This document shows positions 12,643 through 63,938 of a stretch of DNA of 64,000 nt, piece by piece. Position 1 is the first letter of the stretch; each line of letters opens with the position of its first letter. Where the stretch lies: the IMG/VR virus record IMGVR_UViG_3300029887_000004, one strand, 5' to 3'. Origin of the DNA: a virus (lineage: Duplodnaviria > Heunggongvirae > Uroviricota > Caudoviricetes). The notes under the pieces were generated by a model that saw only the letters and a program-made list of their open reading frames with translations, was not told the DNA's origin and ran no database searches. Made by a program: the position numbers and the translations under genes.

Positions 12643-13158
12643 TTAATCTAAAATCACATCTCCTGCAGAGATAAGTCCATATGCTTTTTTGATTGAGTTT
12701 TCGTCTAATACATATCTTTCACCTGCCATTTTCATTTCTTCATTAATACTATTAACAGAAAGTATTAGTTTTTCTTTTGCTACTTCCTTATTCTCTGCAC
12801 AAACAACGATTTTTTTAATTAACGGACTTTTCTTCCATCTACCGTCAAGGTCATGCCATTCCATGTTTGCAATTCCAGTATAAAAGTCTATTGCCGCCGA
12901 ATCTTCTTCCTCTTCATCGTATTCTCCATATTCACATGTATCGCAAGTAGAAAAATATTTGTCATGGACTTTGCAGCATTCTGGTCTATTATCTTCAAAA
13001 TCATCAAAATCAATTTTGGGAACATGCTTCTTTCTTTCAGTTACAACAATTGTATCCACAATAGGCTGGCACAAAATCACTCGATCAAATCTTGTTCTAT
13101 CCTTTTCAGATAAATTATTCCACTTCTCTAAAAGCGAATCTGCATCTATTAATCTCAT
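12643..13158 (-). CDS. hypothetical protein
   Basis: 171-aa ORF with a TAA stop. Confidence 0.55.
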   Translation of the reverse strand: MRLIDADSLLEKWNNLSEKDRTRFDRVILCQPIVDTIVVTERKKHVPKIDFDDFEDNRPECCKVHDKYFSTCDTCEYGEYDEEEEDSAAIDFYTGIANMEWHDLDGRWKKSPLIKKIVVCAENKEVAKEKLILSVNSINEEMKMAGERYVLDENSIKKAYGLISAGDVILD

Positions 13159-13187
13159 ATTGCTGCTCCTTTTATATAAAATAAGTT

Positions 13188-13571
13188 TTATTTAATGACA
13201 ATGTTTGGATAAACACCAACGCCACTATCATAAATTCTGTTTAATTCGTAAACTTCAACAATCCTGTACCATAAAAACGGTGAACCAATTTCTTTTTCTT
13301 GAAACAAATCCGGTAATCGTTCTTGTAATTCATCTGTTACAAATCCGCCAATTCCTAAAGTGTTGCCAATTTCAATTAACTCATCTAATGATACTGTTTC
13401 AATATTTTTTAACTCATCTGAAGGATCAGGATCATAACAAAAATCTATTCGATCTTTCTCTAGCTCAACTACTCCAAATCGATTATGTTCAGTTCTTACT
13501 ATCATCCCAGTTTTTAAGTCTGATTTTTTCAATGACGTCTCTCCTTTCATAAATTTGTGAAGCAATTTCAA
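13188..13571 (-). CDS. hypothetical protein
   Basis: 127-aa ORF. Confidence 0.55.
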   Translation of the reverse strand: MKLLHKFMKGETSLKKSDLKTGMIVRTEHNRFGVVELEKDRIDFCYDPDPSDELKNIETVSLDELIEIGNTLGIGGFVTDELQERLPDLFQEKEIGSPFLWYRIVEVYELNRIYDSGVGVYPNIVIK

Positions 13572-13712
13572 ATTTGCATCAATTAATTCACATATAACAA
13601 GGCTTAATTTCTCACTTTTATATGTGTAATATTTTTTAATTTACGGATGAAATTAACTTTTCATTAAGTCAAATGACACAATCGTCCATTATATTCCTTC
13701 AGAAAAGTAAAG

Positions 13713-13786
13713 TGGATCATACTGGACTTGAACCAGTGACTTCCCAGTTATGAGCTGGGCGTTCTAACCTACTGAACTAATGATCC
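13713..13786 (-). tRNA. tRNA-Met (anticodon CAT), 74 nt, no encoded CCA
   Basis: Reverse complement folds as a cloverleaf: acceptor GGATCAT/ATGATCC, D-stem GTTC/GAAC, anticodon stem CCCAG/CTGGG with loop CTCATAA, T-arm ACTGG-TTCAAGT-CCAGT. Confidence 0.8.
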
Positions 13787-13942
13787 TGGTTGCACCATAA
13801 AGCGAAGCTATGCACGACCTCCAATGGATTAGCCTTTCATAATACCTTTTCGCTGCATTTAGTTACACAAAACATACGATTTTTGTGTTGCGATATTCTT
13901 TTACTTCCAACTAAACAAAGTTGCATACTTTATGGTGCTAAA

Positions 13943-14023
13943 TACTGACGGTGGGACTCGAACCCACATATCTGTGATCCTGGTATTTGAAGCCAGTGCG
14001 TATACCAATTCCGCCACGCCAGC
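13943..14023 (-). tRNA. type II tRNA, most likely tRNA-Leu (anticodon CAA), 81 nt
   Basis: D-loop GGAATTGGTA (Leu/Ser-type), anticodon loop TTCAAAT, a 12-nt variable arm with a small hairpin, T-arm GTGGG-TTCGAGT-CCCAC. The acceptor stem needs two G-U pairs and the anticodon stem has a C-A mismatch, so confidence is moderate. Confidence 0.6.
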
Positions 14024-14179
14024 ATGTGTGCGATAGTTGCTTCATCCGTTTAGGACATTTCCTAACGAGGATGCTGATCCCAACCCATCGCTTAAGTGAT
14101 CAGTTTATTACAAGTGGAGGCTTGTGTTGCGATACATGATAAGTTTTATGTCTTTCATGCTTGGACAATTATCGATTTT

Positions 14180-14395
14180 CTAACAAAAAATTACAGCTAA
14201 CGTGATAAACAAGAAAATCAAAATGATTCCGCATGATACTCCAAAACTTACATCCTCTCCCCATCGTTTTTCAACATAAGCAATAATTTTATCATATGAT
14301 TTTGCGATAAATGTCATCCCAAATACAGACACAACTGCAATCGCAACAATTTCTAATACTAAAGTTAAAAATAACATTAACCAATATTCATTCAT
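14180..14395 (-). CDS. small two-TM membrane protein
   Basis: 71 aa, sequence almost entirely hydrophobic. Confidence 0.5.
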   Translation of the reverse strand: MNEYWLMLFLTLVLEIVAIAVVSVFGMTFIAKSYDKIIAYVEKRWGEDVSFGVSCGIILIFLFITLAVIFC

Positions 14396-14414
14396 ATATG
14401 TACATTCTCCTTAA

Positions 14415-14843
14415 TCAATACTGCCTAAAAGTAAAACTCTCGCCACACTCGGTGCAAACAACCGATCCAACTGATACTTCGGCAAAATCCTGAAATTCAT
14501 ACTTAAATCGACCATTTACGATTAGTTTATGTCTTTTTGTAAGATGTTTTTCAATCCACTCTCTGATCTTAGTATCTTCATCTTCCGTAATCGGAAATCC
14601 TCGATTCAGTTCTTCCTGCATTGCTTGCATTTTTCTTTTCATCATCTGCAATTTAGAATCTTTATAAGCTTCATCCCTTAATCTTTTATTCTCTTCTCTC
14701 AATCGAGTAATTTCTTCATCACGCTTTTTTAATCCATCTTCAACATTTTTGATAATGTACGGTGTCTGATCTTCTTTATTAGCGATTTGACAAAGGATCT
14801 CATTAATATTTTTATCCATTGTTTTATTCTCCAATCTCTTCAT
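14415..14843 (-). CDS. hypothetical protein (coiled-coil, C-terminal CxxC)
   Basis: 142-aa ORF. Confidence 0.55.
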   Translation of the reverse strand: MKRLENKTMDKNINEILCQIANKEDQTPYIIKNVEDGLKKRDEEITRLREENKRLRDEAYKDSKLQMMKRKMQAMQEELNRGFPITEDEDTKIREWIEKHLTKRHKLIVNGRFKYEFQDFAEVSVGSVVCTECGESFTFRQY

Positions 14844-15042
14844 TTAGCCACTGGATACAATCTTCAATTGCCTCATCTCTATACTTAAACTGTTTTTTAG
14901 ACGGTGATTGCCAAACAAGTTTTTCATCCAGACACAAATTTTCATCTAAAATATCAGCTGTCGATTTGATATCTAATCGAACCAAATATTCGGCTAGTTC
15001 ACTAACTGGCATAACTCTCAATATGTCTAGATTTCGCATCAT
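14824..15042 (-). CDS. hypothetical protein
   Basis: 72-aa ORF. Confidence 0.4.
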   Translation of the reverse strand: MMRNLDILRVMPVSELAEYLVRLDIKSTADILDENLCLDEKLVWQSPSKKQFKYRDEAIEDCIQWLNEEIGE

Positions 15043-15126: not shown

Positions 15127-15861
15127 TTATTTCTTTTGAGCTGCTTTTAGTGCATCCAATTTCTTCTGGAGTTCTTCATCTTTCATCTTTTTATCCAGAC
15201 GCTTCATCTGAACGTCAATGGAATTCTTGTAAGCGATTCTTGTACCGTCAGCCTGTTCTTTTGTTTTCTGAACGCCTTCACGAACCTTTTCAAGCATTCT
15301 ATCTTCTTCTTGACTTGAAGTGCTTGTGGCAGATTGTAAAGATTTTACGGTTTCTGCAGCCTCGAGTGTGAATACTGCTTTATCCTTTTCTGCTTTTAAA
15401 GATTTAATTTCTTCCTGCAGAGCTGTTAAATTTTCTTTCTGTACATCTCTATTCTCTTTTAATTCTTTCAGAGTTGTCTTAATCGTTTCAATTTTGTCCG
15501 TGATTTCCTGCTGTCTCGCAAGATATACTTTTGCACCTTCGTCATCATTTCTATCAATACAGGATGCAACACTAAGATCCATCTGCATATTCTCTTTCTG
15601 CAACTGTCTTAATTGTGTTTCATAATTCTGGATTTTACCCTCGACCTGGGTATATAAAGAGTTTATTTTGGTGTAAGTATCTCCCTTCTTCCAAATAATA
15701 GAATTATAGTAGGCTTTTGCTCCATCTGGCGTAGATGCATCATTGCCAATGATTTCATCTGCTGTTCCTGATGCTCTCATTTTTAGTCTCTTACCCGTTT
15801 TAGTTGTTGTAAAAAATACAACTGCCGCAATCACAAGAATTACGATAATCAATACTGTCAT
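15127..15861 (-). CDS. membrane-anchored PspA/IM30-like coiled-coil protein
   Basis: N-terminal TM helix, long coiled coil, and a C-terminal region SATSTSSQEEDRMLEKVREG resembling the PspA FERMEEKV motif. Its ATG overlaps the stop region of the TerD gene. Confidence 0.5.
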   Translation of the reverse strand: MTVLIIVILVIAAVVFFTTTKTGKRLKMRASGTADEIIGNDASTPDGAKAYYNSIIWKKGDTYTKINSLYTQVEGKIQNYETQLRQLQKENMQMDLSVASCIDRNDDEGAKVYLARQQEITDKIETIKTTLKELKENRDVQKENLTALQEEIKSLKAEKDKAVFTLEAAETVKSLQSATSTSSQEEDRMLEKVREGVQKTKEQADGTRIAYKNSIDVQMKRLDKKMKDEELQKKLDALKAAQKK

Positions 15862-15863
15862 AG

Positions 15864-16502
15864 TTAATCCCTTCCTTCGTCAATATCAAGTCCAAAGTTT
15901 TTGAATAGTTCTGTCATACCACCCATATAACCAGATCCAAGAGCCTGGAATTTGAATCCATCACCATATTTATAAAGCCTACCCATCTCAACGGCATTGA
16001 GCTTTTCAAAATTCTCATTTTCAGAAAGATCATATTCCCATTTTGTTGTCGGATTGTCATAATCACAGATCATCATAGTTGCGTTATTAACCATTCCAAA
16101 ATTCTGTAGTCTCTGTACAGCTCTGAAAATAGTAAGGCAAATTGTGAAGTCTGTTCTATCTGATGGAAATGTATCTGCATGAATAATAAAATATTCATCA
16201 TAATGGTGTCCGTCAAAAGTAATTCCCTGAGAATCGTCGCCAGTAAGATTGTCTCCAGAATATTCTACCCACGGATATCCACTACCATCACCATATGTAT
16301 TATAGTTTACAATATCTTTTGGATAAGCTACTTTTCGATCTGAATTTGTAAGAAATCCATTAATATCAAAATCAATATCTGATTCACCTGCATAACGATT
16401 CTGATCCCAATTCACACCAATAAAAAAGTTTTTGATTGCAGTTCCATCTTCTTTTGTCATACTAATTTTCTGATTTTTGCTCATATTAATTACGTTTGCC
16501 AT
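15864..16502 (-). CDS. terD: TerD-family (tellurite-resistance/stress, Ca2+-binding) protein
   Basis: MANVINMSKNQKISMTKEDG...GVNWD...GDNLTGDD...RLYKYGDGFKFQALGSGYMGG aligns along the whole TerD fold. Confidence 0.8.
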   Translation of the reverse strand: MANVINMSKNQKISMTKEDGTAIKNFFIGVNWDQNRYAGESDIDFDINGFLTNSDRKVAYPKDIVNYNTYGDGSGYPWVEYSGDNLTGDDSQGITFDGHHYDEYFIIHADTFPSDRTDFTICLTIFRAVQRLQNFGMVNNATMMICDYDNPTTKWEYDLSENENFEKLNAVEMGRLYKYGDGFKFQALGSGYMGGMTELFKNFGLDIDEGRD

Positions 16503-16525
16503 AATTATGTATTCTCCTTTTCTTA

Positions 16526-17296
16526 CTATTTATTATTGAGCCAATCTTTATATTGTCTTAGAAGTTCTGTATATAATTCTTCATCTGTCATTTTGTCCAT
16601 GTCTTCTACTGCAATAAATCCGGTATTATCGCATTTTCTACTCTTCATATCATCCAGAGACTTTAAATAACTAAAGCTTTCATTTCCAATTCCAACAAAC
16701 TGTACAAACATATTGTAATTAGAAAGCTCTCTCACAATTTTATTTGTTTCTCCCGTATCCCAGTTTTCACCATCTGTAATAAAAATGATAAATGCTGGAA
16801 TTGTACTTGGTTCAATGTCCTTATAATAAGAAACAATGTCTTTCAAGACTGGAGCGTAATTAGTTCCACCCATGCTCATATGAGAATTCATCATAATTTT
16901 TCGAACATAGTTTTTATAATTATCAATTGTGATTGGTTTTAGAGAATCAAAATCATTTGAAAATAGCCAAGATTCCAACTCTCTATTGTCATCAAATTTA
17001 AGAGCGATTGGCAGAAGTCTTGTAATTACATTCTGTACAGATCCATTTCTAAAAAGATTACCCATACTTCCAGAATAATCCATAGCGAGCGCAACCCTTG
17101 CTTGATGCTTAGTCATATCAATTTTGCTTGATTTCGACATATTAATTAGCACATTATTTAGATTTTCTGCTGACTTAGACATGTCAATTACAACTGGCTG
17201 CGCTGCATTTTCTTCATGTACCACAGCGGATGTATTATCCGCCATAGTATTTGTTGTTGAAGTCTTTTTTCCAAAAAGTTTGTCAAATAGTCCCAT
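16526..17296 (-). CDS. vWA-domain protein with TerD-like N-terminal segment (TerY-like)
   Basis: MIDAS motif ALAMDYSGSMG with ITDGE further on. The N-terminus (VVIDMSKS...INMSKSSKIDMTK) resembles the start of TerD. Preferred start is MGLFDKLF at 17296 (RBS AGGAGAGGA) rather than the track's 17341. Confidence 0.7.
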   Translation of the reverse strand: MGLFDKLFGKKTSTTNTMADNTSAVVHEENAAQPVVIDMSKSAENLNNVLINMSKSSKIDMTKHQARVALAMDYSGSMGNLFRNGSVQNVITRLLPIALKFDDNRELESWLFSNDFDSLKPITIDNYKNYVRKIMMNSHMSMGGTNYAPVLKDIVSYYKDIEPSTIPAFIIFITDGENWDTGETNKIVRELSNYNMFVQFVGIGNESFSYLKSLDDMKSRKCDNTGFIAVEDMDKMTDEELYTELLRQYKDWLNNK

Positions 17297-19910
17297 GATT
17301 TTTATCCTCTCCTTTGATAAATAATTTTCGAATAACATCAACCACGATTACCGTGAGTGATAGTCCAATGATTGCGATCCACTGACTCATATTCATTGCT
17401 GTTACCTGGATAAGTCCACCGAGTACATTACATAAGGCAATAGTTCCAAGTACAATACCTGCTGCAATATATACAAATGTTTTATTGTTTTTCAGTCCAT
17501 TGAGCAAATTAATATGTTCTGTACGAATACCAAATCCATTGCATACAGACATGATGCAAAGCATTGCAAATCTTGCAGTCATAGCCTCGACATCTGTTGT
17601 AAATAATTTTGATACTGGTGAAAACATAAGAACTCCATATAGTACAATAAATGTTACTGTGCTAATAGCAATTCGTTTCTTTGCACCTCGAATAAACAAT
17701 CCAGAACCCTTCTTAATTGGATTCTCTGTCATATATTCAGCTTTCGGAGGTTCACCGCCAAATGATAATGAATTAAGTGAGTCCATGATAATATTGATAA
17801 TCAGAATCTGAACGGAAGCTAGTAATACTCCGCCAGATAAAATAGGAAATAGAATACTTAAAATAAGAAGTGAAAAGTTAATTGGCAACTGAAACTCCAA
17901 AAACATCATGATATCGTGCATAAATGTTCTGCCAAGTTCCACACCTCTAATAATACTTGCGAAGTTATTGTCTGTTAGAATAATATCGGATGCTTCTTTT
18001 GCTACATCAGATCCAGCATTCATACCGAAACCTACATCAGCTCGTTTTAATGCTGGACTATCATTAACCCCGTCACCTGTCATAGCTACTGATCTACCAA
18101 GCTCTTGTGCTAATGTTACAAGTCTCAGTTTTGTATTAGGTGAGCATCTGGAAATTACTCGAAGTACAGGAATAATTTTCTTGACTTCATCGTCAGACAT
18201 CGCTTCAAACTGTGCGTTTGTAAGGGCAAGATCACCTTCTTTATAAATGCCAGCTTCCGTAGCAACGGCTACTGCAGTTTCATGACAATCACCGGTAATC
18301 TCGATAACCTGAATGCCAGCTTCATGAGCGACCTGCACAGCCTTTGGAACCTCTTTTCTTACTGGGTCAATGACACCGATAATTCCTAGAAATACCATAT
18401 CATCTGGTAATGTATTCTCCACCAGCGGTGAATTAGAAAATGTAAGAGCGATACAACGCATAGACTTTTCAGTTAAAGCCTTAATTTTGTCATACAGCTT
18501 TTTCTTGCCATCCCCACCAAATGGAATGGCTTCTAAATCTAGCCAATGCGTACAATGCTCGATCAGTTTTTCAGGTGCTCCTTTATAATATGTAAACGAT
18601 TCGCCCCAGCTATATTTGCTCTCAAAAGCAGAATATTTATTTTCACTACTAAAAGTTTGCTTCTGAACTAATGGATACTTTCCAAAAATATCTTCACATT
18701 CTTTTGGATTAACAAGACTTAAAACTGCTCTGTCAATGGAATTTCCACCTGTGATATTATTCTCTGAATCATATGTGGCACTGTTGTTTAAGCAAATATT
18801 ATTTACAATATTTTTCCAAAGATCAGAACCATGATCTACTTCATTACCTTCTCCATCAATAATAGTTACAGGCGTCATAACACCAGTCGTAAGCGTCCCT
18901 GTTTTATCAGTACAAATAAGATCAACGTATGCTAACTCAGGAATCTTATTAGGATTTTTAGCAAGAATATTGAATCGTTCCATTGTCTTGACATTCTGTT
19001 TTGTAACAAGCTTGATAATTAATGGAAGTCCTTCTGGAACAGCAGCTACAATGATTGTTAGAGCAACCGAAATGTTCTGTGCAATCTTTTGGATAACTTC
19101 TAGCACACCACCATTGATATATTCTCTGAATCCAATATACGCAATATCCGTTACCATCAGTGCAATAAACGTGACGACTGCAGCAATCGTTCCATATCTC
19201 GAAATTGTATCACAAAGTTTATCGATCGCAATCTGAAGTGCTGTTTTAGGTGGCTCAAGTGTCTGCATTTTTACAAGTGTGTCACCATTTATGGTGTTTA
19301 CGCCAACTTCGCCTACGATCATCTTTCCTTCGCCAGACAGAATCGTTGTTCCAGCAAATAAGCTATTTTGATTCGTAAAATCATCGGTGGATGTTGATTT
19401 TTTGTATACATAACCATTAATTGGAATTTTCTTACATTCTTTACTTTCTCCGTTGATAGCAGCATTGCTTACAGAAATTTTACCCTCAATAATATATCCA
19501 TCCGCGTAAATTTCCTGTCCAGTTCCAATACAAACCACATCACCAACAACTAAATTATCTTTGTTGATTGTCTGAACTTGCCCATCTCTGATAACATCAC
19601 AATACCTAGTTGATGTCTTTGCTCTTAGTTCTTGTGTTGATTTTTGAATACCAAGCGCCATTTTTACACCAATATATGTACATAATGAAATAACTAAAAT
19701 CACCATGATTGGTTCTGAAAATGATGCCAATCCAAATACTGCAGCGAAAATCTCATATGCAGATAATGCTAATAACAGCATCAGCGTTTTATCACCAAAG
19801 ATATTTTCAATCGCAAATTCATACCACTTTTTAAGTTTTGGTTCTGGTAGTTTGTTTGAGCCATATTTTTCCCGACTCATTTTTACTTGTTCGTTTGTTA
19901 GTCCTTTCAA
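17283..19910 (-). CDS. P-type (type II) Ca2+-transporting ATPase
   Basis: ICTDKTGTLT, AVPEGLP, ITGD and MTGDGVNDSPALKRADVG motifs, with ~10 TM helices. 875 aa. Confidence 0.85.
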   Translation of the reverse strand: MKGLTNEQVKMSREKYGSNKLPEPKLKKWYEFAIENIFGDKTLMLLLALSAYEIFAAVFGLASFSEPIMVILVISLCTYIGVKMALGIQKSTQELRAKTSTRYCDVIRDGQVQTINKDNLVVGDVVCIGTGQEIYADGYIIEGKISVSNAAINGESKECKKIPINGYVYKKSTSTDDFTNQNSLFAGTTILSGEGKMIVGEVGVNTINGDTLVKMQTLEPPKTALQIAIDKLCDTISRYGTIAAVVTFIALMVTDIAYIGFREYINGGVLEVIQKIAQNISVALTIIVAAVPEGLPLIIKLVTKQNVKTMERFNILAKNPNKIPELAYVDLICTDKTGTLTTGVMTPVTIIDGEGNEVDHGSDLWKNIVNNICLNNSATYDSENNITGGNSIDRAVLSLVNPKECEDIFGKYPLVQKQTFSSENKYSAFESKYSWGESFTYYKGAPEKLIEHCTHWLDLEAIPFGGDGKKKLYDKIKALTEKSMRCIALTFSNSPLVENTLPDDMVFLGIIGVIDPVRKEVPKAVQVAHEAGIQVIEITGDCHETAVAVATEAGIYKEGDLALTNAQFEAMSDDEVKKIIPVLRVISRCSPNTKLRLVTLAQELGRSVAMTGDGVNDSPALKRADVGFGMNAGSDVAKEASDIILTDNNFASIIRGVELGRTFMHDIMMFLEFQLPINFSLLILSILFPILSGGVLLASVQILIINIIMDSLNSLSFGGEPPKAEYMTENPIKKGSGLFIRGAKKRIAISTVTFIVLYGVLMFSPVSKLFTTDVEAMTARFAMLCIMSVCNGFGIRTEHINLLNGLKNNKTFVYIAAGIVLGTIALCNVLGGLIQVTAMNMSQWIAIIGLSLTVIVVDVIRKLFIKGEDKNHGTI

Positions 19911-20003
19911 TTTTACACTCCTTTTCTATTTGTTTTAGAATATCTATAACAAAGATAGTCCAAAAATAATAATGACCATCTTAGTCATCTTAATTTTTAT
20001 TCT

Positions 20004-20900
20004 CTATCGAGCAATGTCACATTCATGGAAGTCTAATAACATCTGATATTTATATTCTCCAAAACGTTCTTTCCATCTGTGTTTTGCTTTCTCTGTATTC
20101 CAACCAAATGGCATCATGTGGTAATTAACTAGAAAACACATATCCAGAAATTCGTCGCTAGATAAATCATAAAATGTATCATGTAGCTCTGATAAGATTA
20201 AATACGCAGAATATTCAGCATGACCAAAGTAATGAGCAACCCCATTTTCATCAAAGCTTTGTGTATATAATTTTCCAACGTCATGGTAAAAGGCAGCTAA
20301 TCCAAAATATTCTGGATAATTATATTTTTTAAATAACCGCATAGTATAATCGCAATGTCCGCCTAATGTTTTATTATGATATGGTGTCTTTTGATCAAAT
20401 TCATTCATAAAATTAATTACGTTGATCATATTTGCCCTATAATGAAGATTTTCAATTATAATTTTATCGAGTCCTTCTCCTTTGAACGGAATTTGAAATC
20501 TTCTAATTTGATTATCTAATACAAATTCCGGAACAGGATGTTCTCTATTCTTATTATCTTGTCTACATACCAAGATATGTTTTGGAATAATATAACAAAT
20601 CTTCTCAACATCCAAGTTTCCTACATTCTGCAAAATTGCTCTACGGCTTTTCATCGTAAGATTGGTTGCGTCTGCTATTACATTTTTATTATTCTCCAGG
20701 TTCTCACGAATTCTTTTGTGAAATACCTTGAATACTTCATCATTTCGATCCTGATTTTCATAATCACCAGTTAATTCTTCTCTAATTTGATCGGAAGAAA
20801 CAATAACTGTATTTTCATGCTCTTGTGCTAATTTCTGAGCGATTGTAGACTTTCCAGATCCACTCAGCCCGCACATAATCCAAAGTGTAGGTTTATTCAT
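20004..20900 (-). CDS. polynucleotide kinase (P-loop) fused to HD-domain phosphohydrolase, an RNA end-healing enzyme
   Basis: N-terminal GLSGSGKST with a DAT lid, C-terminal HD motifs (YHDVGK, GHAEYSAYL). ATGA overlap with the ligase gene. Confidence 0.65.
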   Translation of the reverse strand: MNKPTLWIMCGLSGSGKSTIAQKLAQEHENTVIVSSDQIREELTGDYENQDRNDEVFKVFHKRIRENLENNKNVIADATNLTMKSRRAILQNVGNLDVEKICYIIPKHILVCRQDNKNREHPVPEFVLDNQIRRFQIPFKGEGLDKIIIENLHYRANMINVINFMNEFDQKTPYHNKTLGGHCDYTMRLFKKYNYPEYFGLAAFYHDVGKLYTQSFDENGVAHYFGHAEYSAYLILSELHDTFYDLSSDEFLDMCFLVNYHMMPFGWNTEKAKHRWKERFGEYKYQMLLDFHECDIAR

Positions 20901-22186
20901 TCGTCCTCCTGTGTAAAAATGTCGGCATAATTTGATACACCCATATCATTTAATTTTAAATATTTGGGATTACCGCCCTCATGACTCTTAATAACATTGA
21001 TTGATTTTCCAAAATACAAACTTTTACAATATTGTCTGTATTTTTTCGGTATATTTCGATCGATCCAAATCATAAAATCTTTCTTACTATCTTTCGGTGC
21101 CTGATTATAATATTCTCTAATTGTCTTTTCGGTTTTCTCGATATAATCAAACACAATAAATGCGATTCTTTTTACATTATCATGGTAAGCAATAGGAAGT
21201 TTTGAAAGAAGATCATCGTATGTATCATCTGCGATACAACGAATAATAAGATTAATAGAAGACAACTTAGACAATGCTTTATGAATGTGAACATAGTCAT
21301 TGTATTTTAGCTTTACTTTATAATCATCAATATTGATTACAAATCCTTCCGCTTCATCAGATGATTTATCATCTAATTCACTCATAACTGTATCTAGTGT
21401 TTTGTCAAATACTTCAGTCGTAAGAATGTCATACTGTTTAGCAACAGCTAGTACTGTTTTGTAATCCGCTTCTATGCCAAGTGCATTGCTTCTTATTCCA
21501 ATAAGGTATAATCCCTCTTGCTCTTTGGTATATTTAACAACATGTGCATCTTTTAATGAAATATATTCAAAAATAAAAGTATGGTGTTCGAAATCTTTTA
21601 ACATCTTTTCATATCCTGGTAATGCTCGAATCATTCTATACCCATCCTGCAATCTCCAAGAATTTTCAGGATTAATAGTCTGACTACCAGCCATAACAAT
21701 TTCTCCGTTATACCACGTAGCAGACTGCATCGATCCATCCAATTTATTTGAGAATTCAACAGTATGAGCCATACTGATTCTTTTTTGAATATTCTTCAAG
21801 CTCGTTTCTGCGATCTCGTTAATATTAAAAAACTTTCGGAACGGGCATAGAACAATACAATCATTCACTACATCAATAACAATGCTCCTACATTCACGAT
21901 AAAATCCATTATATCTTTCCCAAATATCTTCACCTGAATTTTCAATTTCTCCATCGTAAATATTGCTATATCTTCCATATCTCAAAAGAAGAAAATTGTT
22001 ATGCTGATTTAATTCTAAACAAGAAAGTAAGTCTGTATATTCTGAGTATTGATTACATTGTTTTATGCTATTTAATTCATCGATCCATCTTTCCAGACAT
22101 GTTTTTGATTCATCTGTATATCCTTCTGTATAGTCATATGCGATATTGCTGAATCGTTTTTTTATACTCATTTTTGATTTCAACAA
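20897..22186 (-). CDS. RNA ligase (nucleotidyltransferase motif I KxDGS)
   Basis: EFSNKLDGSMQSA (KxDG), 429 aa, translationally coupled to the Pnk-HD gene. Gene pair resembles T4 pnk/rnl. Confidence 0.6.
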   Translation of the reverse strand: MLKSKMSIKKRFSNIAYDYTEGYTDESKTCLERWIDELNSIKQCNQYSEYTDLLSCLELNQHNNFLLLRYGRYSNIYDGEIENSGEDIWERYNGFYRECRSIVIDVVNDCIVLCPFRKFFNINEIAETSLKNIQKRISMAHTVEFSNKLDGSMQSATWYNGEIVMAGSQTINPENSWRLQDGYRMIRALPGYEKMLKDFEHHTFIFEYISLKDAHVVKYTKEQEGLYLIGIRSNALGIEADYKTVLAVAKQYDILTTEVFDKTLDTVMSELDDKSSDEAEGFVINIDDYKVKLKYNDYVHIHKALSKLSSINLIIRCIADDTYDDLLSKLPIAYHDNVKRIAFIVFDYIEKTEKTIREYYNQAPKDSKKDFMIWIDRNIPKKYRQYCKSLYFGKSINVIKSHEGGNPKYLKLNDMGVSNYADIFTQEDE

Positions 22187-41613: not shown

Positions 41614-43677
41614 TTAAAATTTGATTTTCATAATTCTTTCTGTAGCACCTTTAACTTTTACAACAAGCTCATTGCGCTGCGTCAGACTAAAACCAACACC
41701 AGAGAGCTGATCATCGACGTCTGTTACACTACACTTTGCACCAAGTGCTTCAAATACTTTACGATGTGGAACTAATTCATTCTTAAGATATTCCACAAAG
41801 AAACCATTCGGCTGTTCTGGATTTACACATCCATTCAGGAAGAAGAAAAGATGTTTATTCCCGATCCCATTCTGCTCATCAAAATAGTTCGGGCTGTAAC
41901 TGATTACAGATACAGGTGTAAACTGATTTGTCTGTACTCCCCATACTTCTCTACTAGAAGTAACCGAGTGACCAAAAAGTTTTTCTTTGATGGTAAAGTT
42001 TCCGTTCGTATCCATAATTACTTCTGCGACGTCTACGTCTCCACGCACTGGGTTATTGTATTCAAACGAATAGATCTCGCCATCGAATTCAATTTCTGCT
42101 TTAAATCCTTTACTTCCTCGGTTGGTATACTGATTTACAAAGAATCTGTATGCGCCAGGAATCATTCTCGATTTGTCCTGCCATGTAATATTTTCCACTG
42201 CTGGCTTCCCTGGCATACTGCTATATGGCTCAATCACATCAATATCAAGCTGACCACCAAGTTTCGACATAGATGGTTTTCTATCACTACCAAAATAGAT
42301 TTCATGACCATTTGGTTCAATACAGTGAGCATCAAGATCACTGTTGTCATTCTGATCCTCGTTCCACATAATAGAGAATCTAAGCACTCCATCTACATTT
42401 CCACCAGCATTCTTTACATTCTGTTTGATATCAGAATCGGTAATGTTTCCTGTATATGCCCAGCTCAGACCATTGTTCCATTTGAACATTGTGTTGGCAT
42501 TCGAATTTTCTGGGGCAATTAAAGAAACAAAGTTTTTCTCATGTTTATTCTCTACAAATACTTCAACCTCTTTCGCGGTCGGAAGAACCTTTTCTACGAA
42601 ATCCTGTGCTGTCACTTCTTCTACTCTAGAAAATTTCTTTGGATTAACTGCTACAGATTTTGACATCTCTGTAAAAATGTCTCCTCTACCAGAAATTCTC
42701 TTCGCTGCATCTTTATTAGAAAATAGAATATTATTTACTGAGATATCATCCAGATTTGCAAAGCGACGCTTCAGAGAATCCATATACCCAAGTTCTGTAA
42801 GAGTTTTCTTTGCATCGTCCAGCATTCTCTGAGTATAAATTGGCTTACTTCTTTTATAGTTGCTGGGTGCTACAATCTGCTCATATTTTTTAACTGCAGT
42901 ATCAAGATCCATTCCTTCACTTACATTTACAAGTAGTGTTCCAATAGAATGGTTTCTGATTTTACCAATAACAGCTCCTGCTTTCAGAGATTTCTCCCAA
43001 ACATACAAATCTTTTTCTTCTTCTGGAAGTTTGTCGTATTCCTTTTTGTATTTCTTGAATTCAACCAGCGGAACCCTCCACTCTGCTCCACGATACAGCG
43101 TATTGGAATTAATCAGCTCAAGAATTGTTTCCACAGAATCCATAGTGATCTCATCCAGAGAACGTTTAAATACGTTTTTAATATCTCTGTATTCACCATG
43201 GATATTACCTGCAGATCTACGAGAGTCAAATACAAACTTATTAGGAAGTCTCATATAAAAGTGATCCCACTGATGAGATTTTCCGTTGATCATTTCAAAG
43301 TTCTTATCTGTGCCAATATTTTTAAGCTGACTTACAAAAACATCGACTACCTCTTCGTTATGGATAAGTTTGGAAAGTGCCTTGACTACCGGCTCATAAA
43401 TAGTTCCAGACATATCTACATCCCAAATACTTTCCATTTTATTATCCTTGATTACAACCACAGCGCCGATTGTACGAATGAACTGGCGGCAGCAGGTACA
43501 GTCATGTTCTCTTCTCTCTCTAAAAATATTGTTCGTTCCTGGCGCAAAGCTATCGAGATATGTATCCCACAGCAGTTCCTTGTCTACGTCCACTTCGAAT
43601 AACTTATCTGCATTTGCGGACATTTTATCGAAATGTTTCTGAAGCTTCTCCTTAAAAATTACGAACTGATCTAACAT
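41614..43677 (-). CDS. large hypothetical protein (687 aa)
   Basis: Long intact ORF with no recognised motif, sitting next to the NAD salvage genes. Confidence 0.55.
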   Translation of the reverse strand: MLDQFVIFKEKLQKHFDKMSANADKLFEVDVDKELLWDTYLDSFAPGTNNIFRERREHDCTCCRQFIRTIGAVVVIKDNKMESIWDVDMSGTIYEPVVKALSKLIHNEEVVDVFVSQLKNIGTDKNFEMINGKSHQWDHFYMRLPNKFVFDSRRSAGNIHGEYRDIKNVFKRSLDEITMDSVETILELINSNTLYRGAEWRVPLVEFKKYKKEYDKLPEEEKDLYVWEKSLKAGAVIGKIRNHSIGTLLVNVSEGMDLDTAVKKYEQIVAPSNYKRSKPIYTQRMLDDAKKTLTELGYMDSLKRRFANLDDISVNNILFSNKDAAKRISGRGDIFTEMSKSVAVNPKKFSRVEEVTAQDFVEKVLPTAKEVEVFVENKHEKNFVSLIAPENSNANTMFKWNNGLSWAYTGNITDSDIKQNVKNAGGNVDGVLRFSIMWNEDQNDNSDLDAHCIEPNGHEIYFGSDRKPSMSKLGGQLDIDVIEPYSSMPGKPAVENITWQDKSRMIPGAYRFFVNQYTNRGSKGFKAEIEFDGEIYSFEYNNPVRGDVDVAEVIMDTNGNFTIKEKLFGHSVTSSREVWGVQTNQFTPVSVISYSPNYFDEQNGIGNKHLFFFLNGCVNPEQPNGFFVEYLKNELVPHRKVFEALGAKCSVTDVDDQLSGVGFSLTQRNELVVKVKGATERIMKIKF

Positions 43678-59894: not shown

Positions 59895-61946
59895 CTATGC
59901 AGTTTCACCCAACAAAATTTTTCTAAACAGGCTTTCAAAAATCGGAACACAAATACTATTGCCAGCCTGTTTATATAATGCCATTCTATATCTTCCTCGT
60001 TTCTGTTGGACAGATGCAGCTGCTTCATAATCCTGATCCGTATATCCCATAAGTCGCCAGCATTCTCTTTCTGTAAGATATCTGTATTTTCCATTATGTA
60101 AGTCAATTACCTGTGCAGGTGTCCGATCCTGGCGAGTCGTGATTGTATAAGCATATTGGTCAATTACGGTTGCTCTTCTAATTCCGGATGCTCCAATACA
60201 TTCCAGAATGCTCGGTTGTGTTACCTCATATACTGGATCAACTTTCTGTTCCAAAAACTCATGAATGTTTCTCATTGGCGTTCTAATCAGATCAGAAAAA
60301 TCAAATTCCTTTCCTTTTAAACAACTTACAGTGAAATAGCGTTCTCTTGCTTGCGGGATACCAAACTCTCTTGCGTCTAATAGTTCATATGTACTTGTAT
60401 ATCCAAGTTTACTTAATTCTTCCATATATCTGTCGTGATTATGCACCATATATTTACTTCTGACATTTTTGACATTTTCCCAAATCACATATTTTGGTTT
60501 CCATTCTCCCATCTGTTTAATAATATTAATTGTTTCCCACATAAGACTCGATCTTGTCCCAGACCCTTCTTCTGCGCCAGCTCCATGATTTGTTCTTCCA
60601 TTTCCAGTAGCTGTGCCTTGATGTCCAGCAATAGACATATCCTGGCAATTATGCACTATACATCCATTTGCCGTATAAGAATGAGCCTCTTCCACTTCTA
60701 TATCATAAACAGTTTCTTTGTTTTCTGTATGTTCAATTTTTGTTATTGGAGACCATAAATATCCATCTTCAATAATTGACATTCTTCTATTGCACTTTAA
60801 AGTCCATCGTATTGTATATGTGTCTTTTTGATGAATCTTTCTTCCTTCTATACATCCAAATTCTTGACGTTTAAATTTACTTATTTGAAACGGTATATTA
60901 TATGCTTTCACAATCAACTGCCCAATTCCATATAATAGTTTCCTATTAACTGAAGTTATAGAATATGTATATTTTTTACATGATCCATCACTATCAACAT
61001 AACCCTCTATTAATTTCCTCACGAGATTAATTGGCATATCAAATACAAATCCAGGTAAATATTTACCTTCAGCACCTTTTCCAAATAGATTGCAAAAAGT
61101 AGCTAATTCTTTATTTGTAAATTGATATTTATATGTCGTATTGTCTTCGACTTTTACGTAATGTGCCCATTCTGGTATTTTTTCTTCAAATAGTTTATCT
61201 TCGCCATTTATTTTTGATGTACATATAATCATGCTAGAAACATTATTGTTTCTGTCTTTCCTCGTTCTTGTCCATCCGTCACCTAAAAATCTTCCTATCA
61301 AATACCATAATCCTTCGTCTTTCATGTTCAGATTATTTTTAATATATTTAGATCTTCCCCTTGTACACTCAACACCATCCCATTTGGGGACAATTGAATT
61401 TTGATTTATTGGGGTTCCGACCAAATAATTTTTATTTAGATCTTTAGCTTCGACCCATTTTGGTTCCGAAAATTTTCTTTTCATCGTCTTCTTCCCATCA
61501 ATAAATGGGTGAATATATGTCTTTTCTCTTACATAAAATTTATGATTGCTAGTAGTTTTTATTTCATGACAATTAGATGCTTTTAGTTTTATAATATTTT
61601 TTTCGCCATTGTTGAATACATTAATTACTTTGTGAAATAAACCATCATGAGAAACAACTTCTTCATTAACGGAAACATCTTTTATTTCTCTAAAACCATT
61701 TTTAGTCAATACTAATGTATCTCCTGTAAAACATGGACTTCCATGTATCAAAATATCTGGACGAAGATTGTATCCGACCACTGTTTGTGTTTTATAGTGA
61801 AGATCTTTTGCGAACATTGCATTGTATGATCTAACCGCTGCTTCGTCAATCTCGACATAATCAATTGATTTAACAGGAATACCGATATTCCGTAATGCAC
61901 ACCGTGGGCTTCCAATTCCACCGAATAATTCTAAAATTTGTACCAT
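59895..61946 (-). CDS. dcm: DNA (cytosine-5)-methyltransferase interrupted by a 362-aa intein carrying a LAGLIDADG homing endonuclease
   Basis: Extein motifs: I LFGGIGS, IV GSP|CQDMS, VI IWENVKNV, VIII GIPQARERYF. The intein runs from CFTGDTLVLT to ...GCIVHN, then the +1 Cys (residues 72-433, DNA 60648..61733). Two LAGLIDADG motifs, LIGRFLGDGW and LIEGYVDSDGS. The insertion sits exactly at the catalytic PC|Q. Confidence 0.8.
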   Translation of the reverse strand: MVQILELFGGIGSPRCALRNIGIPVKSIDYVEIDEAAVRSYNAMFAKDLHYKTQTVVGYNLRPDILIHGSPCFTGDTLVLTKNGFREIKDVSVNEEVVSHDGLFHKVINVFNNGEKNIIKLKASNCHEIKTTSNHKFYVREKTYIHPFIDGKKTMKRKFSEPKWVEAKDLNKNYLVGTPINQNSIVPKWDGVECTRGRSKYIKNNLNMKDEGLWYLIGRFLGDGWTRTRKDRNNNVSSMIICTSKINGEDKLFEEKIPEWAHYVKVEDNTTYKYQFTNKELATFCNLFGKGAEGKYLPGFVFDMPINLVRKLIEGYVDSDGSCKKYTYSITSVNRKLLYGIGQLIVKAYNIPFQISKFKRQEFGCIEGRKIHQKDTYTIRWTLKCNRRMSIIEDGYLWSPITKIEHTENKETVYDIEVEEAHSYTANGCIVHNCQDMSIAGHQGTATGNGRTNHGAGAEEGSGTRSSLMWETINIIKQMGEWKPKYVIWENVKNVRSKYMVHNHDRYMEELSKLGYTSTYELLDAREFGIPQARERYFTVSCLKGKEFDFSDLIRTPMRNIHEFLEQKVDPVYEVTQPSILECIGASGIRRATVIDQYAYTITTRQDRTPAQVIDLHNGKYRYLTERECWRLMGYTDQDYEAAASVQQKRGRYRMALYKQAGNSICVPIFESLFRKILLGETA

Positions 61947-62003: not shown

Positions 62004-63044
62004 TTAGATAATATTTTTCATGATTTCTACAGATTCTTTTTGTGCTTTTTCTTCCATTCCTCTTACATATAACAGCGTTGTATTAATTGATGCATGATGT
62101 AAATTTTTCTGTACAAGCACAATATCACCCGTTGCGTTGTACAATGTGGTACCATATGTTGCCCTTAGTTTATGTGGACTAATTGTTTTTCCTTTTATGT
62201 TACAAGCATATTTTTTTGTAATATCTGAAATTGCACTTGTTGACAATCTCTTTCCGGTTTTCCCAAGAAACAGAGCTGGCGTATCGCGTGCTGTTACAAG
62301 TTGATCTCTGTATGCTAACCATTTCTGCAATTCATCTAAAACTTTTGGAATTAAAATGAATGTATGAACTTTCTTTCCCTTATCTGTTACAATCAAAGTT
62401 CCTTTATCCATATTTAAGTTTTCTATATCCATATTGGATAACGCTGCACAACGTACACCTGTAGAAAGGAAAAGTTTTATAACTGCAATATCCCTTTGTG
62501 ACCAAATAGCTGATGGCTTTCTTGTTTTTCCTGTTAGCTTATGATCAACATTATAAAGATACGTTTGTGTTTCTTCTGGTGTCAAATAACTCTTTTCTCT
62601 TCTTTCTATTGTTCTCTGTTGCTCTCTCTTTTTTGGCTTCGCAATTTCTTCCATATAATTTTTCGAAAAAATTTTATATGCAAACATACATTTTGAAAAA
62701 AGTTTTAACGCAGAATAAACTGCGATTTGATAAGAAGAAACTGTTTCTAATCCATTGTCTTTATCTTGTATTTTTGCCATATAGGATACAAAATCTCTCA
62801 GTTCGAGATCTTCTTCTTTTTCTTTTCCGGTGAACTTTAGAAATTTTAATACATCACACATATAAACATATTTTGTCTTTTCTGATAAATCATGCATATA
62901 TAAAAGGAAGTCTTGTAGATTCTTAGACTTCCCTTTCATAGTGTTTTCGATTTTTCGTTTATATTTAAGTTTTTCTTCCTCTAAACCTGTCTGGACTCTT
63001 TCATTCATTTTATTCCTCCAATCATAAATCGGCAATTGCAGCAA
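62004..63044 (-). CDS. int: tyrosine recombinase / phage integrase
   Basis: LFLSTGVRCAAL, HKLRATYGT and LHHASINTTLLYV supply the R...HxxR...Y catalytic residues. Confidence 0.85.
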   Translation of the reverse strand: MLQLPIYDWRNKMNERVQTGLEEEKLKYKRKIENTMKGKSKNLQDFLLYMHDLSEKTKYVYMCDVLKFLKFTGKEKEEDLELRDFVSYMAKIQDKDNGLETVSSYQIAVYSALKLFSKCMFAYKIFSKNYMEEIAKPKKREQQRTIERREKSYLTPEETQTYLYNVDHKLTGKTRKPSAIWSQRDIAVIKLFLSTGVRCAALSNMDIENLNMDKGTLIVTDKGKKVHTFILIPKVLDELQKWLAYRDQLVTARDTPALFLGKTGKRLSTSAISDITKKYACNIKGKTISPHKLRATYGTTLYNATGDIVLVQKNLHHASINTTLLYVRGMEEKAQKESVEIMKNII

Positions 63045-63486: not shown

Positions 63487-63672
63487 TTAATAACGTTCCT
63501 CCTTTCTGATTTTATTCAATTTTTCTTTCTTTTGATTGATGTGTCGTACTTTTGCTCGTGGCCTATATTTATCACAATGTTGACAATAATGATTGTGATC
63601 TGCTTCTCTCCCTTTACTACATTGTCCTGCGCAAATATAGTATAAGCATGGTGTTTCTCTTGTCTTACTCAT
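63487..63672 (-). CDS. hypothetical Cys/His-rich protein
   Basis: 61-aa ORF. Confidence 0.45.
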   Translation of the reverse strand: MSKTRETPCLYYICAGQCSKGREADHNHYCQHCDKYRPRAKVRHINQKKEKLNKIRKEERY

Positions 63673-63938
63673 CTTTTATCCACTCCTATCGGCATGATAA
63701 TATAACCAGAAATACGGAACCCTCTGGACGCAAGTTCTTTTAAATCTGTTGCAATTCTACCTTCTTTCAATAATTTATGCATATTACAATGGATAGTGCC
63801 TTTGCTTTTAATTCCAACACCTTTTCCAATCTCGTCATAAGACGGAGCATAACCATGCTCAAAAATGTAGTCTTTGCAAAATTCATAGATTTTATCTGTT
63901 GTGTCCTGTATGTTATCATATTTATTTACCATAATCAT
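63669..63938 (-). CDS. LexA-like winged-helix DNA-binding protein (no peptidase domain)
   Basis: GYAPSYDEIGKGVGIKSKGTIHCNMHKLLKEGRI resembles the LexA N-terminal domain. Confidence 0.45.
   Translation of the reverse strand: MIMVNKYDNIQDTTDKIYEFCKDYIFEHGYAPSYDEIGKGVGIKSKGTIHCNMHKLLKEGRIATDLKELASRGFRISGYIIMPIGVDKR

Follow-up and report, generated by a model that had tools for sequence, protein, structure and literature searches.

Introduction

Ter genes (TerD, TerC, TerF, TelA) are carried by jumbo phages, and a role against superinfecting phages was proposed for them in 2021 (PMC7824862). More recently, Ca2+ P-type ATPases were described in the "Jug" phages of Bacteroides, where they were termed previously unreported in phages (PMC12880540; Sci Adv 2026, preprint 2025), and pumps with Bacillota-like sequences were also found in 81 other huge phages and in 4 smaller phages of 159-197 kb (PMC12880540). 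In Jug phages, a TerD gene adjoins a pspA-like gene, both this operon and the Ca2+ ATPase show high transcription in the gut, and a manipulation of host Ca2+ levels was favoured as explanation (PMC12880540). The present study concerns a 64,000-nt stretch of DNA (hereafter the window) from the Caudoviricetes record IMGVR_UViG_3300029887_000004 of IMG/VR, in which four contiguous genes encode a P-type ATPase, a von Willebrand factor A (vWA) protein of the TerF-like family, a TerD-domain protein, and a PspA-like protein anchored by a transmembrane (TM) helix. These four genes appear to form one phage operon, which is read here, with a probability of roughly 50%, as a Ca2+-linked membrane-integrity module that would act at the cytoplasmic membrane of the host.

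To our knowledge, the actual job of the widespread TerD proteins has been unclear for thirty years, bacterial membrane repair by PspA and ESCRT-III proteins has no known trigger, and the use of Ca2+ by bacteria is poorly understood. A compact and portable system of four genes would make the role of TerD, the trigger of ESCRT-III repair and bacterial Ca2+ use testable together. Classical Ter systems have TerC as their core membrane partner, and TerD binds Ca2+, as known from the solved Klebsiella protein. In eukaryotes, Ca2+-triggered membrane repair combines sensors of the ALG-2, annexin and copine types with ESCRT-III. TerF is a natural fusion of TerD and vWA (Pfam description of PF10138), and plasmid R478 loses both its phage inhibition and its resistance to pore-forming colicins when terD, terC, or terZ is disrupted by an insertion (Whelan 1995, as cited in PMC12054061). 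PspA and Vipp1 are presented in PMC8281802 as ESCRT-III-family proteins that stabilise or repair damaged membranes. A survey of phage shock protein (PSP) systems mentions neither phage-encoded PspA nor Ca2+, TerD, or vWA neighbours (PMC11237479).

The locus in the window resembles these systems in part. Like the window's pump, the pumps of Jug and other huge phages are P2-type Ca2+ ATPases with a DKTGT motif and ten TM helices, and they come from gut metagenomes; these other pump-carrying phages probably include the lineage of the window. An earlier reading of this DNA, made from its letters alone (the sequence-only reading), had called a Ca2+ pump very unusual phage cargo, a judgement that is now dated by the report of such pumps in huge gut phages. 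However, the Jug pump shares its transcript with a small gene of unknown function that lies upstream of it, and stands apart from the TerD/pspA-like operon (PMC12880540), whereas pump, vWA, TerD and PspA-like genes share one compact operon in the Clostridia phages considered here. With the classical ter operon (terZABCDEF of the IncHI2 plasmid R478) and the Ter operons of jumbo phages, the window has in common TerD and a TerF-type vWA protein, a proposed submembrane location, and a connection with phage inhibition and with resistance to pore-forming colicins. It differs from them in that TerC, TerB, TelA and nucleotide-biosynthesis genes are absent, in that the vWA protein is not fused to TerD, and in its membrane partners, i.e., a P-type pump and a TM-anchored PspA-like protein. 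That such components exist and occur in gut phages was therefore already known, and a literature search combining TerD, P-type ATPase and calcium yielded only the Jug-phage work as relevant. No description of the single operon, of its two variants, of the lack of TerC, or of the TM-anchored PspA clade with its mostly phage-borne members was met in the literature that was searched.

Results and discussion

Conservation of the four-gene set and its phage origin

A scan of IMG/VR for the ATPase returned 102 viral contigs, mostly of 90-216 kb, with 64-99% identity. When the window proteins were compared by tblastn with 80 IMG/VR viral loci, the order ATPase, TerD gene(s), TM-PspA gene was found on the same strand in 76, the exceptions being three short contigs and one locus (L024) that has flanking sequence but no PspA-like match. 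The cluster noted in this window thus recurs in phage homologues. The same order was seen in five genome loci from the Genome Taxonomy Database (GTDB), of which the ATPases are 46-66% and the PspA-like proteins 33-38% identical to those of the window. Two variants of the module exist: about a quarter of the loci, including the window, carry the vWA gene plus TerD, and the rest carry three canonical TerD paralogues. Both recur in the genome loci, also where identity has dropped to 46-48% for the ATPase and 33-38% for the PspA-like protein. The genes that flank the module differ between phage lineages, and in close relatives the four genes occur in independent combinations of alleles (e.g., ATPase 98% with PspA-like protein 83%, or ATPase 89% with PspA-like protein 98%). 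Because the set stays together despite this recombination, the comparison argues for selection on the four-gene combination.

Scans against PHROG profiles revealed phage-type neighbours on both sides of the module across the 64 kb, all on the same strand as the module. They include a RecJ-like exonuclease, a primase, a DnaB-like helicase, a Sak4-like annealing protein and a nucleotidyltransferase, as well as a T4-type RNA ligase, a polynucleotide kinase/HD protein, several HNH endonucleases, and a tyrosine recombinase. Structural genes were not found in the window, and near-identical DNA was not found among GenBank phages. In the cultured Ruminococcus sp. AM36-2AA, the module lies on a 499-kb contig (L085) between phage genes, namely, an NAD-dependent DNA ligase interrupted by an HNH gene, a phrog_1735 protein, HNH endonucleases, and a Sak4-like protein. 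Hundreds of near-identical ATPase copies are found in the protein database, one of them annotated as coming from Blautia sp. AF17-9LB (90% identity). In a non-exhaustive pattern scan of 185,579 bacterial and archaeal species, each represented by one genome, the PspA-like family was met at only 7 loci; those with enough flanking sequence all carry the module, the flanks examined (those of the isolate locus L085) consist of phage genes, and no non-phage context was found in that scan. The module lies inside the genome of a large Clostridia phage from the gut and is not host DNA, which settles the concern that the region might be host chromosome at the end of a prophage. Attachment sites were not identified; the phage is probably temperate, because it is carried in cultured isolates.

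In GenBank phages, tblastn matches of the ATPase do not exceed about 34% identity. Because most of them lie on short contigs that lack annotation, bear a Listeria or Enterococcus "phage" label and resemble host DNA, these matches were not counted as support for phage pumps.

Organization of the probable operon

The window has a low G+C content of about 33%, and all its sizeable open reading frames (ORFs) are on the minus strand, among them the four genes of Table 1 at the positions first proposed. Translational coupling, which had also been proposed, is supported by their packing. The vWA gene almost certainly starts at an ATG (17296) that overlaps the ATPase stop codon by 14 nt and is preceded, eight bases before, by AAAGGAG; a gap of 23 nt, containing AAAGGAG, separates the vWA and TerD genes; and the TerD and PspA-like genes are 2 nt apart, with GAAGGAAGG within the 3' end of the TerD gene. 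Each of the three internal junctions has a ribosome-binding site. An ORF from TTG 17341 would span 16526-17341 (271 aa), but this start is probably unused in favour of ATG 17296; gene callers elsewhere give a product of 257 aa.

The cluster is preceded by a gap of 93 nt and followed by one of 84 nt, and its G+C is close to that of the flanks. The 93-nt leader is a possible candidate for the operon promoter, and its promoter-like sites (20020-19993 and 19993-19966) are no commoner than in shuffled sequence. Since consensus promoter and terminator matches around the operon likewise occur at background frequency against shuffled sequence, the assignment of the four genes to one phage operon, and the boundaries drawn for it, follow from gene spacing rather than from signals. 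Small genes directly downstream (14180-15042) are kept only among close relatives and were left out of the module.

Table 1. Features of the four-gene operon in the window
Feature	Position	Strand	Remarks
P2-type (PMCA/LMCA1-like) cation pump, 875 aa	17283..19910	minus	First operon gene; TTG start, AAGGAG ribosome-binding site
vWA-TerF-like (copine-like) protein, 256 aa	16526..17296	minus	PF10138, phrog_5359; ATG start
TerD-domain protein, 212 aa	15864..16502	minus	PF02342; modified Ca2+-binding loop
TM-anchored PspA/IM30 (ESCRT-III superfamily)-like protein, 244 aa	15127..15861	minus	phrog_33389; weak PspA_IM30 match, fold
Intergenic leader upstream of the ATPase gene, 93 nt	19911..20003	minus	Ribosome-binding site and two sigma-70-like hexamer pairs

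The P-type ATPase

The ATPase contains the Pfam domains E1-E2_ATPase, Cation_ATPase_N/C, and Hydrolase (HAD). Its best NCBIfam model is TIGR01517, the PMCA-type Ca2+ ATPase (453 bits, equivalog cut-off 507), and its closest solved chains are plant ACA8 (2e-89) and Listeria LMCA1 (1e-84), followed by human SPCA1 and SERCA. All of these are Ca2+ or Ca2+/Mn2+ pumps. The protein has CTDKTGTLT (with D335) and TGDGVNDSPAL, and a survey of 83 full-length phage homologues showed DKTGT and GDGxND to be kept in every one. The site-II residues, E293 of AVPEGLPLI in M4 and N706/D710 of NIIMD in M6, align with those of ACA8 and LMCA1; PEGLP and the M6 Asn/Asp are likewise invariant (83/83). With catalytic and ion-site motifs retained throughout, the pump is likely active, and it is most likely a Ca2+ exporter. 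The type-II Ca2+ ATPase named by the sequence-only reading is borne out as regards P2 domains, motifs and best-scoring Ca2+ model, but not as regards the cut-off of that model.

Listeria LMCA1 and the plant and animal PMCA-type pumps (P2B-like, one Ca2+ per ATP) are about 30% identical to the window pump over the full length. They share with it the site-II Glu in M4 and the Asn and Asp in M6, and lack, as it does, the site-I Glu that SERCA has in M5. Because its M5 segment is PMCA-like in this respect when aligned to the solved chains, a transport of one Ca2+ per cycle is suggested from these alignments and general knowledge of such pumps. Unlike PMCA, the window pump has no calmodulin-binding autoinhibitory tail. 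The TGES dephosphorylation motif is universally conserved in P-type ATPases. In the A domain of the window ATPase (residues 152-156) NGES stands in its place, and NGES or NGET does so in 79 of the 83 phage homologues. This recalls the DGET of P4 flippases, the remainder of the protein being P2-type.

TerD and the vWA-TerF-like protein

The TerD assignment of the sequence-only reading is confirmed by PF02342 (E=2e-35; 122 bits, gathering score 25.3) and by matches to the solved Klebsiella TerD 2kxt (E=3e-24) and to 3ibz (E~1e-24). The canonical Ca2+ loop GDN(R/L)TGxGDGDDE is present in all three TerD proteins of a locus with the other module variant (L017).

The vWA protein matches the vWA-TerF-like family PF10138 (E=2e-59; 201.6 bits, gathering score 29.4) over residues 80-270 in the numbering from the TTG start, with Copine (E=1e-9) and VWA (E=5e-7) as secondary Pfam matches; solved structures matching it by sequence were not found. 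Its metal ion-dependent adhesion site (MIDAS) is intact (DYSGS 73-77, T145, D175) and invariant in 11 homologues. The N-terminus has a conserved MG[LF]F.KLFG start, which is followed by a variable linker. Pfam detected no TerD domain in the first 80 residues, so that the protein does not qualify as a TerF-type fusion, and the only likeness to TerD is a 13-residue motif, INMSKSSKIDMTK, which looks like the first strand of the adjacent TerD (INMSKNQKISMTK). Of the vWA protein with MIDAS motif and TerD-like N-terminus that had been proposed, the MIDAS thus stands, and the N-terminal likeness shrinks to this motif. By themselves, vWA-TerF-like genes are common in isolated phages (320 GenBank records).

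The TM-anchored PspA-like protein

Three independent routes converge in assigning the 244-aa protein to the PspA/IM30-ESCRT-III superfamily, of which it is a divergent member with a membrane anchor in place of helix alpha0. With a profile built from 18 family members and run against all PDB sequences, the first four matches were Vipp1/PspA (E 0.004-0.008), generic coiled coils ranked lower, and the alignment to Vipp1 was colinear (query 54-200, Vipp1 30-177). The second route is the predicted fold: the AlphaFold model (mean pLDDT 73, above 90 over residues 50-170) has a helical hairpin (45-103/107-176) followed by helices 184-199 and 216-243. In a Foldseek search of this model against the PDB, the top 21 matches were all Vipp1, PspA, CdvB, or (Asgard) ESCRT-III, and E. 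coli PspA (4whe) superposes on it with an rmsd of 1.7 Å over 116 columns. The third is an intermediate-sequence test, for which 30 distant homologues (E 1e-18 to 2e-7) were aligned with the window protein: PspA_IM30 matches were obtained for 24 of these 31 sequences (at least 23 of the 30 homologues), down to E=7e-33, and the profile enlarged with the distant homologues matched Vipp1 at E=6e-19. The orthologue from L017 reaches 25.7 bits with PspA_IM30 over profile positions 26-219 of 220. Profile searches thus support all four assignments of the sequence-only reading, that of PspA at the superfamily level only.

A single N-terminal TM helix (residues ~2-19 by hydropathy) is followed by the basic stretch KTGKRLKMR, from which the positive-inside rule would place the PspA-like part in the cytoplasm. 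Compared with PspA, Vipp1 (IM30) and LiaH, the protein shares the hairpin fold, alpha4 and alpha5, with colinear similarity over ~150-190 residues; its clade is found mostly on phage or phage-like contigs. The family profile retrieved only 234 proteins from 1.84 billion cluster representatives; GenBank phages gave one weak match, and plasmids (PLSDB records) none. An identity as TelA was rejected: no Pfam TelA match was obtained, and the sole "TelA" fold match is an unrelated LXG toxin (E=0.17).

Distant members of the TM-PspA clade occur in a second module, on large gut phage-like contigs of 38 to 266 kb (L091 4686-8425; L094 4020-8315; L098 283-4712; L100 3135-8334; L101, GenBank MT835556.1, 1469-5528). 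Its order is ABC permease, ABC ATPase, a coiled-coil protein of 174-206 aa without Pfam match, the TM-PspA-like protein, and a ~520-aa protein in which an NMT1-type solute-binding protein is fused to an OmpA domain. In L091, a DUF444/vWA-like gene lies directly upstream.

Proposed function and alternative explanations

In the preferred reading, the P2-type ATPase would export Ca2+, so that cytosolic Ca2+ stays low; TerD, with the copine-like vWA protein or as three paralogues, would bind Ca2+ or another metal beneath the membrane as a sensor, buffer, or adaptor; and the TM-anchored PspA-like protein would polymerise on the inner face of the membrane, sealing or stabilising damaged patches. The module may in this way keep membrane integrity and ion gradients in the infected or lysogenised cell, allowing phage production to continue despite leakage caused by phage entry, pore-forming effectors of host abortive infection, bacteriocins, or lysis that sets in too early. 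Such a role would indicate that large, abundant phages of gut Clostridia invest in the maintenance of the host membrane, which would be relevant to phage-host dynamics and possibly to bacteriocin or antibiotic tolerance in the gut.

Several observations weigh against this membrane-integrity reading. The Ca2+ loop of the window TerD is disrupted, with GDNLTGDD and then an 8-residue insertion instead of GDNRTGEGDGDDE. The ATPase passes only the general P-type model TIGR01494 and is below every NCBIfam equivalog cut-off; in its A-domain motif the catalytic Glu is retained and the Thr replaced; and its Ca2+ specificity is deduced from motifs and alignments, Mn2+ or another cation being the alternative. 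For the PspA-like protein, the direct Pfam score with PspA_IM30 is 21.2 bits (E=2.4e-4), below the gathering score of 33.9, and coiled-coil composition can inflate weak scores of this kind; of the TM-anchored PspA/IM30-like protein first proposed, the TM helix and the superfamily membership hold and the Pfam-level match does not. The amphipathic helix alpha0 of PspA/Vipp1 is absent, a TM helix being there instead. Partners of the PspBC/F or LiaI/F kinds were not found by Pfam among six flanking proteins (12643-14843 and 20004-22186, the four short ORFs between excluded), nor was TerC found in the window, where a crude hydropathy scan of the coding strand returned the ATPase as the only polytopic membrane protein. 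Lastly, because distant members of its clade adjoin an ABC transporter, TM-PspA may serve phage-encoded membrane transporters generally rather than Ca2+ signalling.

A more specific version, in which the operon would be a phage-encoded bacterial counterpart of eukaryotic Ca2+-triggered ESCRT-III membrane repair, is tentative and considered unlikely as a whole. Here, Ca2+ would enter via a lesion and be bound by TerD and/or the copine-like vWA protein, which would recruit or activate the TM-anchored ESCRT-III-fold protein to seal the lesion; the P-type pump would then clear the Ca2+, and the host would survive pore-forming effectors, bacteriocins, or superinfecting phages. In outline the parts correspond, i.e., Ca2+-binding sensors (copine-type vWA), an ESCRT-III-fold polymer, and a Ca2+ extrusion pump, and apart from the ESCRT-III fold and the vWA domain, the likeness is one of analogy. 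If this version were true, Ca2+ would be a bacterial damage signal, and TerD would gain a concrete biochemical role.

Other purposes can be proposed for the same operon, among them superinfection exclusion, which the sequence-only reading had suggested along with membrane repair. Ter and PspA-like proteins could change the layer beneath the membrane in such a way that rival phages fail to inject their DNA, the pump being accessory; such superinfection exclusion or inter-phage competition would resemble the phage inhibition (Phi) phenotype of plasmid ter operons, which terD insertions abolish (as cited in PMC12054061), and the same role was proposed by Aravind's group for the Ter genes of jumbo phages (PMC7824862). 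A probably temperate phage in cultured isolates, with a tyrosine recombinase at 62004-63044, would gain by excluding rivals. Yet the TerC required by the classical phenotype is absent from the window, the Ca2+ pump as invariable first gene is left unexplained, and PADLOC defence models gave nothing for TerD, vWA or ATPase and only coiled-coil noise for the PspA-like protein, so that exclusion as the main purpose seems an improbable, if serious, competitor. A purely ionic function, in which cytosolic Ca2+ (or Mn2+) is lowered or re-set for replication, TerD acts as buffer, and TM-PspA aids insertion or stability of the transporter, would agree with the preference of the Jug-phage study for host Ca2+ manipulation (PMC12880540) and with the ABC permease, ATPase and binding protein that adjoin members of the TM-PspA clade in large gut phages. 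It is nevertheless quite unlikely: the Jug pump lies in a separate operon (PMC12880540) and so does not need the TerD/pspA-like genes, and the PspA family is known for membrane protection (PMC8281802) and not for transporter biogenesis.

Expression from the prophage, by which the operon would help the lysogen, and so indirectly the phage, to withstand bile salts, lantibiotics, metalloids and similar stresses on the envelope of gut cells, would fit the occurrence of the module in the Blautia sp. AF17-9LB and Ruminococcus sp. AM36-2AA assemblies and the standing of Ter and Psp systems as classical stress-tolerance determinants. The operon is, however, embedded among same-strand genes for replication and nucleic-acid repair, and it has neither a clear terminator nor its own promoter above background and a G+C near that of its flanks, unlike a typical moron, which makes such lysogenic cargo rather improbable. 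These three explanations (exclusion, ion re-setting, lysogenic cargo) differ mainly in purpose and are not mutually exclusive. That unrelated genes lie side by side by chance, or that host DNA was picked up at the end of a prophage, is refuted to near certainty by the synteny: the order is kept in 76 of 80 viral and in 5 genome loci down to 33-46% protein identity, phage genes lie on both sides, and the PspA-like family is as rare in species genomes, and as absent from plasmid records, as described above.

Further features of the window and related loci

Immediately upstream of the module (20004-22186, minus strand), a T4 RnlA-type RNA ligase (429 aa) and a polynucleotide kinase-HD fusion (298 aa) overlap by 4 nt; the position of this pair relative to the module varies among related phages. 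The two enzymes form a tRNA-repair pair of a type with which phages counter anticodon nucleases. Genes for tRNA-Met(CAT) and tRNA-Leu(CAA) (13712-13786 and 13942-14024, minus strand) were found about 1.1 kb downstream of the module.

Near the end of the window, the tyrosine recombinase/integrase (phrog_1; 62004-63044, minus strand) is followed by further small phage-like genes, including one resembling a LexA-type DNA-binding domain (63669-63938), and no host junction is visible in the 64 kb. An ORF of 683 aa (59895-61946, minus strand) resembles DNA cytosine-5 methyltransferases and, read by eye, is apparently split by an intein with a homing-endonuclease domain, inserted in the catalytic PCQ motif (...HGSP/CFTGDTLVL...IVHN/CQDMSIAG, slashes marking the putative junctions); this intein would explain the mixed PHROG matches of the ORF (methyltransferase, NrdD, helicase). 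Relative to the remainder of the window, G+C between 54000 and 59000 is unusually low (0.28-0.30) and the GC skew very strongly negative, to -0.46.

In the Ruminococcus sp. AM36-2AA prophage, the HNH endonuclease gene divides the NAD-dependent DNA ligase into two ORFs (L085 364-2932). The phrog_1735 protein (685-698 aa) is encoded at 41614-43677 (minus strand) in the window, at 3037-5133 in L085 and at 15565-17622 in L017, in the latter two within ~0.6 kb of the module, and is 56-59% identical to proteins of Bacillus Tsarbomba-like phages and of the Clostridioides phage-plasmid pCD1602_4.

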